Of a DNA stretch of 64,000 nucleotides, positions 5,279 to 55,485 are shown piece by piece (positions within the stretch are counted from its first letter, which is position 1; each line of letters opens with the position of its first letter). The notes beneath the pieces are model-generated. The model was not told where the DNA came from. It ran no database searches and was given only the letters and a program-made list of their open reading frames with translations. The position numbers and the translations under genes were made by a program. The stretch is taken from the sequence record MF158045, one strand, 5' to 3'. The stretch comes from Shigella phage Sf22.

Positions 5279-6738
5279 AGACCAGTTACCTCATGAAAAT
5301 CACCAAATACATCCTCGAATGTATTAGCTTTAGTTTTATCTTCACGTAAACGAATCGCAATCGGAAGAAATAATTTAACGTAATCAGTGCGGCCATCAGA
5401 TTTTAACCAACCGTTGCATTCGCACTCTAGAATTTTTCCAATATAATAATTTTGGTTTTCCATAATGCGAGTACGGTCAAGCTCATGTGATTTTACGCCG
5501 GCTTTATCTTTTAAGCCTGAACCAGCATTTACTTTAATTTTTCCACATTCTGATTCAAGAATAAATCCACCCGCTTTAGTAGGGTCTTTACGGTGAGGAT
5601 AAATTCCTACAATTTTTAAATCAACATCAATTACTTCTTTAAATTTATAAAGATTTTTTGAACGAGCATTTTCCCATAATCCATCGATATTTTTGAGAAT
5701 AATACCTTCAAGACCTTGGTCAATATACTTTTTGTAAATTACCTTAGCTTCATCTAGGTTATTTACTACCTGGTTTTCAATTAAAATTACTTTATCATAG
5801 CCTGATGTCATTTGTTCTAGTTTAGAAAAACGTACATCATACTTTAAACGAAATGCAGGAAGACCATATATTTCTACTAATGGAACATAGTCCCAGACCT
5901 GAAACTTCATGCATTGTGCTTCTTTTTCGGAAATGGTTCCCTTTAAAGATTTATTAGCGATTCCATTAGAAGCAGTACGTGATTCAGCTACTTCGGCGAA
6001 TTCTTTAGCTTTACTAATTTCAGGATAAGCATCAAAAAGAAAATCTAGGCCTTCTGGTTCCTTTTTAACTTGCTCATGGTATACCAATTCGCCATCAATT
6101 AACACACCTTCTGGATGAATCTGGCGGGCTTCAGCGGTCATTTTGATTAACTCTTCCTTGAGAAGATCTAATCCTAGATATTCATTACCAGCTCGTGATA
6201 AAAGACGAACATCATCTAATTCATCACCTCTGACTTCAGCAAAGCACCGAGCTCCATCAGCTTTTAATTGGGCAAAGGCTGGAAATTTGATATTCTTATT
6301 AATGCCTTTTTCATCATAAGAACTTGCCAGCATTTGAGGTTGTTCAGGAATTAAACCTGGCCAAACTTTGTTTGCAATAGATACTGATGCACCACATTCA
6401 AGGTCTCGCATCATCACCCGACGCAAAACTTCAACATCATCTTTTTTACCGTCAGCAATATATCCAGTTAATTCCTCAATTGCCGCATTTCCGGTCAATT
6501 TCCGAGTAGCTAACGTTAATTCAATGAAGTCAAGCATATCGGTAAGAGTCAACATTCCAAAACTCTGGGTAGCAATACCAGGTTTAGGCCATTTCTTGAT
6601 ATAATACTGTAACCCACGAGAATAAGTCAGACGATATACTCGTTTAAGCAATTCATTATCTTTATTCTTTTCAAGAATTGCTTGCTTCTGCTTAGTTGAA
6701 CCAATAGATGCTATTTCGTTCAGAATTTTAAGAATCAT
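5275..6738 (-). CDS. 30: ATP-dependent DNA ligase
   Basis: 487 aa, MILKILNEIASIGSTKQKQAILEKNKDNELLKRVYRLTY... matches recalled T4 DNA ligase throughout. Confidence 0.97.
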   Translation of the reverse strand: MILKILNEIASIGSTKQKQAILEKNKDNELLKRVYRLTYSRGLQYYIKKWPKPGIATQSFGMLTLTDMLDFIELTLATRKLTGNAAIEELTGYIADGKKDDVEVLRRVMMRDLECGASVSIANKVWPGLIPEQPQMLASSYDEKGINKNIKFPAFAQLKADGARCFAEVRGDELDDVRLLSRAGNEYLGLDLLKEELIKMTAEARQIHPEGVLIDGELVYHEQVKKEPEGLDFLFDAYPEISKAKEFAEVAESRTASNGIANKSLKGTISEKEAQCMKFQVWDYVPLVEIYGLPAFRLKYDVRFSKLEQMTSGYDKVILIENQVVNNLDEAKVIYKKYIDQGLEGIILKNIDGLWENARSKNLYKFKEVIDVDLKIVGIYPHRKDPTKAGGFILESECGKIKVNAGSGLKDKAGVKSHELDRTRIMENQNYYIGKILECECNGWLKSDGRTDYVKLFLPIAIRLREDKTKANTFEDVFGDFHEVTGL

Positions 6739-26697: not shown

Positions 26698-27351
26698 TTA
26701 ATACTTGCAAGATTTCACAGTTTCAATAAAAACACTTTTAGCTTTCTGTGAATCAATATTTAAAATTTTTCTATAAGCCTTTAACTTTATAGAATAATTA
26801 TTCCAGACTAAATTATCAGTCTGTTCATCATGTTTATCAATTATATTTAAAAACGAATCAAGCAAGATAAACGTCTCAAACGAAATTATGTTCGATTGCA
26901 GAAGTTTAAAAATATAACTTGACTGAACCTTTGGATTATATTCAAAGATTTCTTTAAAAGCAGAAACTTCAACTTTTTTACTAAAATAATAAATGTTGCG
27001 AATATCTTCTTCAAACTTAAATTTAATTTGCTTTAAGCGTCCGATATATTCACGATAAAACACAAGTGCATCAGCGTCAGAGATGTCACCAATCCAAGCA
27101 TCTTGGTTAGCAACCAAATTGCTTATAAAGATTAAAGCAAGTTCCTTTAATTTATATTTTTCTGATAACTTCTGGAAAAAATACTTATCCCTTCGCTTTT
27201 GATAAGCGGCATCAGACACCCGCATGCACCAATTATACTTAATAACATCATACTTTCCATTCATATGCTGTTTTATCATTAAGTATAATTTATAAACTGA
27301 TTTACCATCAATGTATCTTTCACCACCAGCAGGCATGCGGAGTTTAATCAT
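26698..27351 (-). CDS. 59: Helicase loader
   Basis: 217 aa, MIKLRMPAGGERYIDGKSVYKLYLMIKQHMNGKYDV... matches recalled T4 gp59. Confidence 0.93.
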   Translation of the reverse strand: MIKLRMPAGGERYIDGKSVYKLYLMIKQHMNGKYDVIKYNWCMRVSDAAYQKRRDKYFFQKLSEKYKLKELALIFISNLVANQDAWIGDISDADALVFYREYIGRLKQIKFKFEEDIRNIYYFSKKVEVSAFKEIFEYNPKVQSSYIFKLLQSNIISFETFILLDSFLNIIDKHDEQTDNLVWNNYSIKLKAYRKILNIDSQKAKSVFIETVKSCKY

Positions 27352-42619: not shown

Positions 42620-42656
42620 TTTCTAATCTCCGTAATTCTGTATCAGTAGTTGATAG

Positions 42657-42700: not shown

Positions 42701-42730
42701 AAAAAATTTAAAATAAAAAGGGAGAGCCGA
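42701..42730 (-). terminator. Rho-independent terminator (GGGAGAGCC-GA-GGCTCTCCC + T-run)
   Basis: Perfect 9-bp stem followed by TTTTTATTTT on minus strand. Confidence 0.6.
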
Positions 42731-46430: not shown

Positions 46431-46464
46431 TTTATTCTCCAAATCCGTATCAGTAGTTGATAGT

Positions 46465-53461: not shown

Positions 53462-53887
53462 TTATTCCTTAAAGTGAGCTTTCAACATCTGATACAAGGA
53501 CCATGCCTGTTCATTATTTTCAATAGTAACTTTCATGACTGGGAATTCTGTGAAATCTTCTATTTGTTCTTGCTCTTTCTCTTCCTGCTCTTGCTCTTCA
53601 ACTGCCTGATATGGATTTTCCACTTCATCAAAGAACTCGGCTTCGTTAGTAGAGAGCCAGATAAAGTTTTCGTCAAGGATATCACCATGTGTTGCATATC
53701 CAATTGTGCCAGTAAATGACATAATTTTAGTAGGACGACCAAGATGGTCAACATCTAAAATTTTAAAAGGATGCATACCTAAACGTCGTGCATAAATTCC
53801 ATTATCAGTATGGTCTTTAATAAAAGCTTCTTGAGCTTGTTTATTTTTAAATTGATACCATTTATTAACTTCAAATTTAATAGCCAT
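53462..53887 (-). CDS. Hypothetical acidic protein (141 aa)
   Basis: ORF track; Glu/Gln-rich central linker. Confidence 0.5.
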
Positions 53888-54102
53888 TAATAAATTTCCT
53901 TCCAGTAAGTTGTGCCATCTTCAGTAATTTCACGAAATACACCGTAAATTGGTTGTTTATCACCAACCTTTTCATACACATAAACCGAAGTCAAGTGAGT
54001 AAACTTAACGGTATGTTCCTTTTGAACCACTACCAAATCTGGATCAAATAATACATCTTCAAATTCGTCATTAGTGCAATTCTGAACAATTTTACGTTTC
54101 AT
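53887..54102 (-). CDS. Hypothetical protein (71 aa)
   Basis: ORF track. Confidence 0.45.
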
Positions 54103-54208
54103 TACAATTTCCTCATTAATTAAACATTGGAGCGATACGTTTCAGAAGAGTAGCAGCACCTTTAGCGAATTTTACATCATGAAAAACAGTTTCTTCTTCT
54201 GTAACAAC

Positions 54209-54385
54209 TCAAACTTTAATATTTTCACAATCCCAATTTTTACGAACAATCTTCAAAAGCTGCAGTAAATCTTTACATTCAGCAATATCGATAACACATC
54301 CACGAGAATCTTCCATTATCGCACGATAACCGTAAGCCATACCATAATCATTAAAAGATTGCTCGATGATAATTAAGTTTTCCAT
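54209..54385 (-). CDS. Hypothetical protein (58 aa; start moved to MENLIIIEQ)
   Basis: Conserved leader TTGGAGAATAAAATG. Confidence 0.45.
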   Translation of the reverse strand: MENLIIIEQSFNDYGMAYGYRAIMEDSRGCVIDIAECKDLLQLLKIVRKNWDCENIKV

Positions 54386-54409
54386 TTTATTCTCCAAGTT
54401 GTTTTCTGT

Positions 54410-54450
54410 ATCAGTAGTTGATATTGATATAGTACCATAATCAACTACTG
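54410..54450 (-). promoter_or_regulatory. 13-bp perfect inverted repeat (ATCAGTAGTTGAT / ATCAACTACTGAT) bracketing a TACTAT -10-like element
   Basis: Arms separated by 17 nt; overlaps the conserved early-promoter/leader module. Confidence 0.4.
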
Positions 54451-54482
54451 ATGTATATAGTTTTATGAAAAAATTTTAAACT

Positions 54483-54974
54483 TTATGCATAGCGAGCTTT
54501 GCTGTAGTGTTTAATCCAACTTTCAGGAATGACTTTGTATGTTCCTAAAAATACCGCGTTGTATAACTTAACGCCATCTTCTACCCATTGATCAGTAATG
54601 TATGCACACATAGCGCGAGTACGGTTAACAACACCTTCCTCACCTTCAGTAAATTCAAACTCATAAGGAGCAACGAACTTGATAGCTTGACCGAGTTTCC
54701 ACTTAAAGTCTACACCTACATGCGAAGTATCAATCGTTTCAATTCCTTTAGCGGGAACAGCTTTCAAAAACGCAGGCTCAAGAAATTTCCATCGAACATA
54801 ACCAAACTGAGGTTTAGACATTCCATCTTTAGGAATGATACGCACTTTTACTTCAGAATCTTCATCTTTAACACCATGTTTAAGCTGAATGCTTACGACT
54901 TCAACCAATTTTCCTGCTGCCTTAGAACGGGATTTATCAGATACACGAGCAATTTCACCGATATTAATATTCAT
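54483..54974 (-). CDS. MotB-like protein (163 aa), by position and size
   Basis: ORF track; C-terminal region paralogous to the next ORF. Confidence 0.5.
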   Translation of the reverse strand: MNINIGEIARVSDKSRSKAAGKLVEVVSIQLKHGVKDEDSEVKVRIIPKDGMSKPQFGYVRWKFLEPAFLKAVPAKGIETIDTSHVGVDFKWKLGQAIKFVAPYEFEFTEGEEGVVNRTRAMCAYITDQWVEDGVKLYNAVFLGTYKVIPESWIKHYSKARYA

Positions 54975-55047
54975 AATTATCTCTCACTTGTTAAAAAGAT
55001 TTTATACTCCACGGGACCATTATACTCTGGTCCCAAGAGTTTGTAAA

Positions 55048-55485
55048 CTAGCTTACACGAACATTAATCACTGCGCTGCGAGGAACTACAGAGTACTCTC
55101 CAGCATGAACTACGTTCAGAAGTTCAACACCATCTTCAATCCACTGATCAGTCACCCATCCACCCACAGGATTCGCGAATGGACGACGAATATAAACTGC
55201 CTTACACAGCAGATCAGTTGGATCTTCAGGTTTTTCAATTTCTGTCAATAGACTAAAATCTTTTTCATAAATAATAAGCGGTGATACCATTCCATAATAG
55301 TTTCTAATTTCAATATACATCATACCGATAAGAATTCCGCTATTAACACTAATAACAGTAAAAGGATATCCGCCAGTTAAACCAAGAAGTTCACAAAACT
55401 TATTATGAGCTGTATTAGACAGTACCGAAAAATTCTTAATTTCATCAAATTTTTTCAATTGATAAACAGCATTATTTTTAATCAT
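55048..55485 (-). CDS. Hypothetical protein (145 aa), paralog of the C-terminal domain of the preceding ORF
   Basis: Shared segment ...TDQW[IV]EDGV.L.N.V..G.Y.V.P.S... Confidence 0.5.
   Translation of the reverse strand: MIKNNAVYQLKKFDEIKNFSVLSNTAHNKFCELLGLTGGYPFTVISVNSGILIGMMYIEIRNYYGMVSPLIIYEKDFSLLTEIEKPEDPTDLLCKAVYIRRPFANPVGGWVTDQWIEDGVELLNVVHAGEYSVVPRSAVINVRVS

Follow-up and report, generated by a model that had tools for sequence, protein, structure and literature searches.

The region between motB and cef in T4-like phages contains a predicted early promoter whose -10 hexamer is enclosed by the two arms of a perfect 13-bp inverted repeat. Here, we describe this element in Shigella phage Sf22 and compare it with other early promoters and with the same region of related phages. 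The reading that we favour, with moderate confidence, is that it is a composite early-promoter/stem-loop cassette of T4-like phages, of the PeSL type and with a stem-loop that overlaps the -10, and that it punctuates RNA that reads through from motB. We infer the start site, the activity of the promoter and what the hairpin does to the RNA, which may be attenuation or the protection of a 3' end.

Results

The motB-cef locus

The stretch of DNA that was analysed, hereafter the window, is 64 kb long and comes from a T4-like phage of the genus Tequatrovirus; the genes at the site are on the minus strand (Table 1). The 601 nt around the site (54150-54750) are 98-99.5% identical to many Tequatrovirus phages. 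With T4, the 88-nt intergenic region shares 97.7% identity, and the promoter and the repeat are the same base for base there (NC_000866, about 6567-6652). The 58-aa ORF that the promoter precedes is present in the window and in many relatives. In T4, a deletion in this ORF, which reads ATGGAAAA followed by TTCGCTAAAGG across its junction (T4 locus L002, about 1985-2075), leaves a 20-codon remnant and retains the element. The junction falls outside the promoter cassette. According to Durand et al. 2006 (PMC1702504), motB and the DNA around it can be deleted. The T4 GenBank records carry no annotated promoter or terminator features across the motB-cef region. In phage Kha5h, the depositors annotated a 10-bp 'ori type 2 repeat' (locus L001, 2050-2059); it lies inside motB, is unrelated to the inverted repeat and was rejected as a candidate for the element.

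Table 1 Features of the motB-cef region in the window, in the direction of transcription.
Feature	Coordinates	Strand	Basis or remark
motB, 163 aa, upstream gene	54483..54974	-	ORF list; phrog_1671 MotB-like, E 2e-76; MotB annotated in relatives
motB stop codon	54483-54485	-	
A/T-rich stretch, UP-element-like, AGTTTAAAATTTTTTCATAAAAC	54460..54482	-	motif aaattttttcacaaaac also at other early promoters
Predicted -35 hexamer TATACA	54452..54457	-	alignment with promoters at 42711 and 46518
Upstream (5') arm, coding strand ATCAGTAGTTGAT, in the -35/-10 spacer	54440..54452	-	no other copy in this orientation in the window
Loop TATGGTACTATATCAAT with predicted extended -10	54423..54439	-	TGG 54435-54437, TACTAT 54429-54434
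Downstream (3') arm ATCAACTACTGAT, predicted +1 to +13	54410..54422	-	leader repeated at 42654-42642 and 46461-46449
Shine-Dalgarno and RegB/S1-type candidate site GGAGAAUAAAA	54385..54395	-	sequence; GGAG at 54392-54395; runs into ATG
ATG of the 58-aa ORF	54383-54385	-	
58-aa ORF, function unassigned, downstream gene of the promoter	54209..54385	-	phrog_3720, E 3e-28
cef, after the 58-aa ORF	53887-54102	-	phrog_1354

The inverted repeat and its promoter

On direct recount, the two arms, which read ATCAGTAGTTGAT (54410-54422) and ATCAACTACTGAT (54440-54452) on the plus strand, are exact reverse complements at 13/13 positions. The 17 nt between them, ATTGATATAGTACCATA on the plus strand and TATGGTACTATATCAAT on the minus strand, contain TACTAT. 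A sequence-only reading of this DNA had proposed just such a perfect 13-bp repeat around a 17-nt spacer with a TACTAT -10-like element, and it was right on both points; of the span that it gave, 54410-54450, the start is correct and the end lies 2 bases short of the true end at 54452. When 3 mismatches are allowed, the dyad grows to arms of 20 nt with a 3-nt loop. In the whole window, the plus-strand word ATCAGTAGTTGAT also occurs exactly at 42642 and 46449, each time just downstream of a minus-strand early promoter, while its inverted copy is found at the motB-cef site only and the full palindrome is unique. The left arm is thus part of a leader common to several early promoters and its inverted partner occurs only here, in agreement with the same reading.

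A perfect 13-bp repeat with a loop of 3-40 nt appears somewhere in 7% of simulated 64-kb first-order Markov sequences, with a mean of 0.08 such repeats per simulated window against 2 observed. Around a fixed -10, with the spacer and the leader shuffled, arms of at least 13 were obtained in 1 of 20,000 trials. The DNA fold of the element has a z-score of -4.7 to -5.0, and the DNA hairpins of the two strands are about equally stable at this site. The second perfect 13-bp repeat of the window (27231-27243 and 27278-27290; AATTATACTTAAT, 34-nt loop) sits within a 217-aa minus-strand ORF (26698-27351).

As far as its sequence allows, the promoter can be assigned to the T4 early type; its -35 is slightly degraded and its -10 is extended. 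TATACA matches TTGACA at 4/6 positions and the T4-type TTTACA at 5/6; it deviates from TTTACW at one position and falls short of the family consensus. The upstream arm begins on the last base of this hexamer. The distance from -35 to -10 is 17 nt, and TGG-TACTAT is followed on the minus strand by ATCAACTACTGATACAG. The consensus early promoters at about 42711 and 46518 have GTTTACA as -35 and, from the -10 onward, share exactly the sequence of the motB-cef site. A generic sigma-70 scan gave the combination TATACA-17-TACTAT a score of 8/12, which is under the threshold at which the scan lists a promoter. The predicted +1 was placed 7 nt past the -10 by the usual sigma-70 spacing. Both this anatomy and the sequence shared with 42711 and 46518 agree with the earlier proposal of an early promoter whose -10 is bracketed by the repeat. 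Moreover, the segment GGAGAAUAAAA begins 14 nt past the stem, and GGAGAAUAAAA-UG fits the RegB/S1 target consensus, GGAG + AAUAAAA (Durand et al. 2006, PMC1702504). The motB stop, the element (54410-54482), the GGAG and the ATG follow each other in the order of a PeSL-type intergenic layout.

The leader shared by these promoters, ATCAACTACTGATAC..., is identical at 42642-42654, 46449-46461 and 54410-54422, and it is also found in loci L019 and L020 (about 340-400). The shared part sometimes extends through GGAGAAT, and the loci that carry it are unrelated and include other phages. Many of these leaders finish in the RegB/S1 consensus GGAGAAUAAAAUG. Such repeated leader cassettes could be recombination substrates.

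Folding of the RNA

The 106-nt intergenic RNA folds with a z-score of -4.4. Its hairpin, located 30 nt past the motB stop codon, has a predicted free energy of -20.2 kcal/mol and is composed of the 13 bp of the repeat, a 2x2 internal loop and an inner 5-bp helix, UGGUA/UAUCA, which includes one G.U pair. Overall, it is an interrupted hairpin of 18 bp. Since the upstream arm lies within the -35/-10 spacer, before the predicted start, RNA made from the promoter itself cannot hold both arms, and the hairpin is predicted to form only in RNA that reads through from motB. A stem-loop in this read-through RNA, and in no other, is the best-supported reading of the repeat. The 5' stem-loop in the leader that the sequence-only reading had put forward was therefore wrong as stated: folding does give a stable hairpin, and the promoter's own leader does not contain it, so that a 5' stem-loop of the promoter's own transcript is ruled out by geometry.

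The hairpin is not a canonical intrinsic (Rho-independent) terminator, which is ruled out because only 4/13 pairs of the stem are G-C and there is no U-tract after the stem on either strand; the stem is followed by ACAGAAAAC. A terminator scan returned nothing at the motB-cef site, and the Rfam covariance models gave no match with E up to 1 in the interval 53800-55200.

Embedded repeats at other early promoters

The set of early promoters that was compared, 13 in the window (minus strand) and 14 in 100 kb of T4 as an independent sample, consists of regular-expression predictions and is not an experimental set. A promoter was counted as having an embedded repeat when a perfect repeat of at least 7 bp had the -10 in its loop, and 3,000 random sites served as control. 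Such a repeat was found at 5/13 promoters of the window and 4/14 of T4, that is, at 9/27 combined, whereas 3.6% of the control sites reached 7 bp (binomial p = 3e-7 for the combined enrichment). The five repeats of the window are GGGACCA/TGGTCCC at the motB promoter, the 13-mer ATCAGTAGTTGAT/ATCAACTACTGAT at the motB-cef promoter, AGGCTAT/ATAGCCT, TTTTGGTAGAG/CTCTACCAAAA and GGTACAGG/CCTGTACC. Two further promoters of the window have long imperfect stems. In T4, the perfect repeats are 7-10 bp long and the promoters that have them include those of denV and of ipI, with 10 bp around the -10 in the latter; long imperfect stems occur at two further T4 promoters, among them that of regB. The arm sequences differ at each of the nine promoters with perfect repeats.

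A canonical upstream terminator, defined as a G+C-rich hairpin with a T-tract, precedes 7/27 promoters. None of these seven has an embedded hairpin, as compared with 13/20 of the promoters that lack such a terminator (Fisher p = 0.004). This mutual exclusion suggests that the hairpin acts where the upstream message ends. The remaining 7/20 terminator-less promoters have no hairpin, and the hairpin is thus not obligatory. The promoters at 42711 and 46518, with the identical leader, lack the upstream arm, and 46518 also lacks an upstream terminator. Furthermore, over the 27 promoters folding is more stable for the sense RNA than for the antisense RNA (Wilcoxon p = 0.0009); the mean difference between the two is -2.8 kcal/mol for promoters and -0.9 kcal/mol for random segments. 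This sense bias is the pattern that G.U pairs selected in RNA would produce.

Terminator-plus-promoter cassettes are present in the window at 42740-42660, about 25700-25590 and about 63600-63480. In these, a G+C-rich hairpin with a T-tract (e.g. AGGGAGAGCCTCGGCTCTCCCTTTTT) abuts the A/T-rich region of the promoter, and their promoters have no embedded hairpin.

Conservation in Tequatrovirus and in other genera

The Tequatrovirus orthologues compared were those of T4, Kha5h, five IMG/VR contigs, RB3, G29, O157 typing phage 7 and Manna. A MotB scan of viral contigs contributed 5 loci, and phage records in GenBank supplied the more distant relatives. The segment from -35 to +13 is invariant in all Tequatrovirus orthologues compared, and the variation is confined to the length of the A/T run and to the region past the stem. 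In RB3 and Manna the MotB-like allele upstream is divergent (about 44% amino acid identity for Manna), and the element is identical. At the joint between this allele and the element, GCATAAA is duplicated (GCATAAATTTGCATAAAG; L017 of RB3, 45-75, and L023 of Manna, 1591-1620), which looks like a recombination scar at the edge of the A/T-rich cassette.

The paralogous promoters of L019 and L020 share the leader up to the Shine-Dalgarno and have a consensus -35; their spacer, CCCTGTTCTTC, is not complementary to the leader.

Outside Tequatrovirus, the motB-cef gap has other stems. In Dhakavirus the stem is TAGGGTA/TACCCTA or GGGTAGTAGT/ACTATTACCC. In Yersinia phage vB_YenM_P8 it is GATAGGGTA-ATTT-TGCCCTATC, with one U.G pair (L012, 1256-1303). 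In Mosigvirus, the gap after a second motB-like gene (cef is not annotated there) contains TTCTCCTCTGGTT/AACCAGAGGAGAA, in which the Shine-Dalgarno is included. The gap of the Yersinia phage is 48 nt long and has the hairpin with its 4-nt loop and no recognisable -35/-10; the hairpin appears to be kept there in the absence of the promoter. The motB promoter, too, has another hairpin in other genera, with GAGAGCCAT/ATGGCTCTC in place of GGGACCA/TGGTCCC. These genera, compared by position and not by formal alignment, seem from their sequences to retain a stem at the same place while the sequence itself turns over. The comparison of related phages that had been suggested as a check thus gave invariant arms within Tequatrovirus and different stems in the other genera.

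Discussion

Alternative explanations

The repeat could also be a neutral by-product, made in one step by a templated mutation (quasi-palindrome or strand-switch) or by recombination of promoter cassettes, that persists since the phages compared are closely related. We consider this improbable, although it fares better than the other alternatives. The Tequatrovirus orthologues show no sequence variation and hence no covariation, and with invariant arms there is no compensatory change to assess at the motB-cef locus. The spacer differs from that of the paralogous promoters at 8/13 positions, and so many differences at once would be reached more easily by a single templated event. A frequency of 7% for a 13-bp repeat anywhere in 64 kb is not extreme, and the upstream arm makes no difference to the predicted accessibility of the Shine-Dalgarno. 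Neutrality, however, leaves aside the enrichment of the whole class at this promoter position, its mutual exclusion with upstream terminators and the sense-strand bias. It also fits poorly with an element that stays invariant when both flanks, and even the allele of the upstream gene, change, and with stems of other sequence at the same place in other genera.

A second alternative, which we hold to be less probable still, is that the repeat acts as DNA, either as a recombination site of the PeSL-shuffling kind or as a cruciform that modulates the promoter, and that the RNA hairpin is incidental. A role of PeSLs in the formation of indels and mini-circles has been proposed and in part demonstrated (PMC2839356; PMC4122927). 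Several loci share the leader between the -10 and the Shine-Dalgarno. In RB3 and Manna, a different motB-like allele is joined to the upstream side of an identical element, with the GCATAAA duplication at the joint, and the DNA hairpins of the two strands are of nearly equal stability at the motB-cef site. For recombination, however, the shared promoter homology is needed and not the hairpin, and the T4 deletion beside the element has its junction outside the cassette. A 17-nt loop is unfavourable to cruciform extrusion, and a function in DNA does not predict that sense RNA folds better across the class.

It is very unlikely that the element is a translational gate of the kind known from T4 e, soc, 49 and I-TevI, in which the read-through hairpin hides the ribosome-binding site and only promoter-proximal transcripts are translated. 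T4 late promoters provide documented cases of this logic (PMC3014915), and at several sister promoters the Shine-Dalgarno does lie inside the downstream arm: 45957 and 56032 in the window, and 65390 (denV), 62773 (regB) and 53919 in T4. The same is seen in Mosigvirus and in loci L010, L013 and L021 (about 1620-1670). At such promoters, read-through RNA would hide the ribosome-binding site and promoter-proximal RNA would not, which would be an early-gene version of the e/soc/49 logic. At the motB-cef site, however, the GGAG is 14 nt outside the stem, and partition-function folding gives the Shine-Dalgarno a mean unpaired probability of 0.21 in the promoter's own RNA and of 0.24-0.26 in read-through RNA, which is about the same. 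Sequestration of the Shine-Dalgarno was rejected for this site on these grounds.

The remaining alternative, an operator at which a dimeric phage or host repressor would shut the promoter off, had been raised by the sequence-only reading and is equally hard to uphold: perfect dyad symmetry centred on the -10 is a classical operator position, and the mechanism of T4 early-promoter shut-off has been called incompletely understood (PMC3014915), but the palindrome occurs once, at least 8 other early promoters have unrelated arms at the same position, other genera change the arm sequence and retain the pairing, G.U pairs included, no candidate regulator is known, and half-sites 30 bp apart from centre to centre are unusually distant for a dimer. 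No palindromic word recurs among the early promoters of the window and of T4, and the orthologous sites of the other genera retain the pairing without the word. What the promoters share is pairing and not sequence, and a sequence-specific operator is therefore unsupported; we rejected it.

Proposed role of the hairpin

If the element is a promoter/stem-loop cassette that punctuates read-through RNA, as we favour, it would work as follows. The sigma-70 early promoter would consist of the A/T-rich stretch, TATACA, 17 nt and TGn-TACTAT, and its two sequence-free parts, the spacer and the first 13 transcribed bases, would have been made complementary to each other. RNA started locally would begin at the first base of the downstream arm and form no hairpin. 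RNA that reads through from motB would hold both arms, and a hairpin would form between the motB stop and the next Shine-Dalgarno/RegB site. On this RNA the hairpin most likely serves as intercistronic punctuation, by attenuation of read-through, by giving the motB message a nuclease-resistant 3' end, or by both. A 3' hairpin may possibly protect motB RNA after RegB cleavage at the nearby GGAG. Elsewhere in the genome, a separate terminator hairpin upstream of the promoter would do this job. The stem would bracket the -10 because the promoter nearly fills the gap of about 97 nt, in which only the spacer and the initial transcribed region are free.

Taken by itself, the result at this site is mainly clarifying: an early promoter with a built-in hairpin, identical in T4. 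In the predicted set, between roughly a third and a half of the T-even early promoters have hairpins of this kind. It is tempting, though speculative, to see in the -10-bracketing hairpins a general device of the T-even early region that tells transcripts apart by their origin. Polymerase arriving from upstream would make structured RNA and polymerase that started locally would make unstructured RNA, and the content of the downstream arm would set the outcome, which might be attenuation, protection of the 3' end after cleavage by RegB or RNase E, or a hidden Shine-Dalgarno. If this is true, hairpins would replace a separate terminator at about half of the early promoters, and the logic of the late genes e, soc, 49 and I-TevI would extend to the early programme. 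The pattern may bear on how densely packed early genes are insulated without canonical terminators, and on how mRNA ends are defined in a phage in which the decay of early mRNA (RegB, RNase E) is well studied. The motB region of T4, which can be deleted and engineered, may be suited to bench work on the wider pattern.

Comparison with known systems

The PeSL cassettes of phages RB49 and phi1 combine a sigma-70-type promoter with an A/T-rich region and a stem-loop, which mostly lies between -35 and -10 or over the -10 (Arbiol et al. 2010, PMC2839356). The PeSL211/210 stem-loop, the sole one tested, cut expression of a downstream lacZ like a strong terminator. In the proposal of the same authors, the stem-loop would terminate or attenuate transcription that arrives from upstream, and the cassettes would also be sites of recombination (PMC2839356). 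The motB-cef element resembles PeSLs in having an intergenic A/T-rich stretch, a -35/N17/-10 promoter, a stable stem-loop and a Shine-Dalgarno/ATG. It may also be alike in its location in a dispensable, indel-rich region, and for both a stop or attenuation of upstream transcription is proposed. However, its 13-bp arms are A/T-rich, whereas PeSLs are of the GGGG/CCCC type, and its downstream arm is the leader of a promoter subfamily, unlike in PeSLs. Terminator activity has been shown for one PeSL and is putative here. The PST/T4 PeSLs have the promoter consensus TTTACW-N17-TAYWAT, and according to a figure legend their stem-loops lie immediately upstream of that promoter (Comeau et al. 2014, PMC4122927), whereas the motB-cef stem spans the -10. 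As cited in PMC2839356, Repoila et al. 1994 described weaker PeSL-like elements, with A/T-rich stems of variable size, at the internal-protein loci of T-even phages. As far as that citation describes them, these are alike in their T4 early promoters and A/T-rich stems and differ in the locus, which is motB-cef here.

Two other systems share part of this design. At T4 e, soc, 49 and I-TevI (PMC3014915) the geometry is the same, with the promoter between the arms and only the read-through RNA able to fold; those promoters are late and the hairpin hides the Shine-Dalgarno/AUG, whereas the motB-cef promoter is predicted to be early and its Shine-Dalgarno is outside the stem. In the bacterial promoter-coupled terminators (Fletcher et al. 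2026 preprint, 10.64898/2026.08.19.745784), as in the element proposed here, one stretch of DNA ends the upstream unit and starts the downstream one. There, however, the stem-loop DNA is the -35 and a T-tract comes before the -10, whereas the motB-cef stem brackets the -10 and lacks a T-tract; these bacterial elements resemble the cassettes of the window at 42740-42660 and not the motB-cef stem. By this comparison, the motB-cef dyad fits best among the PeSLs already known, as a candidate example from the T4 group in which the stem overlaps the -10.
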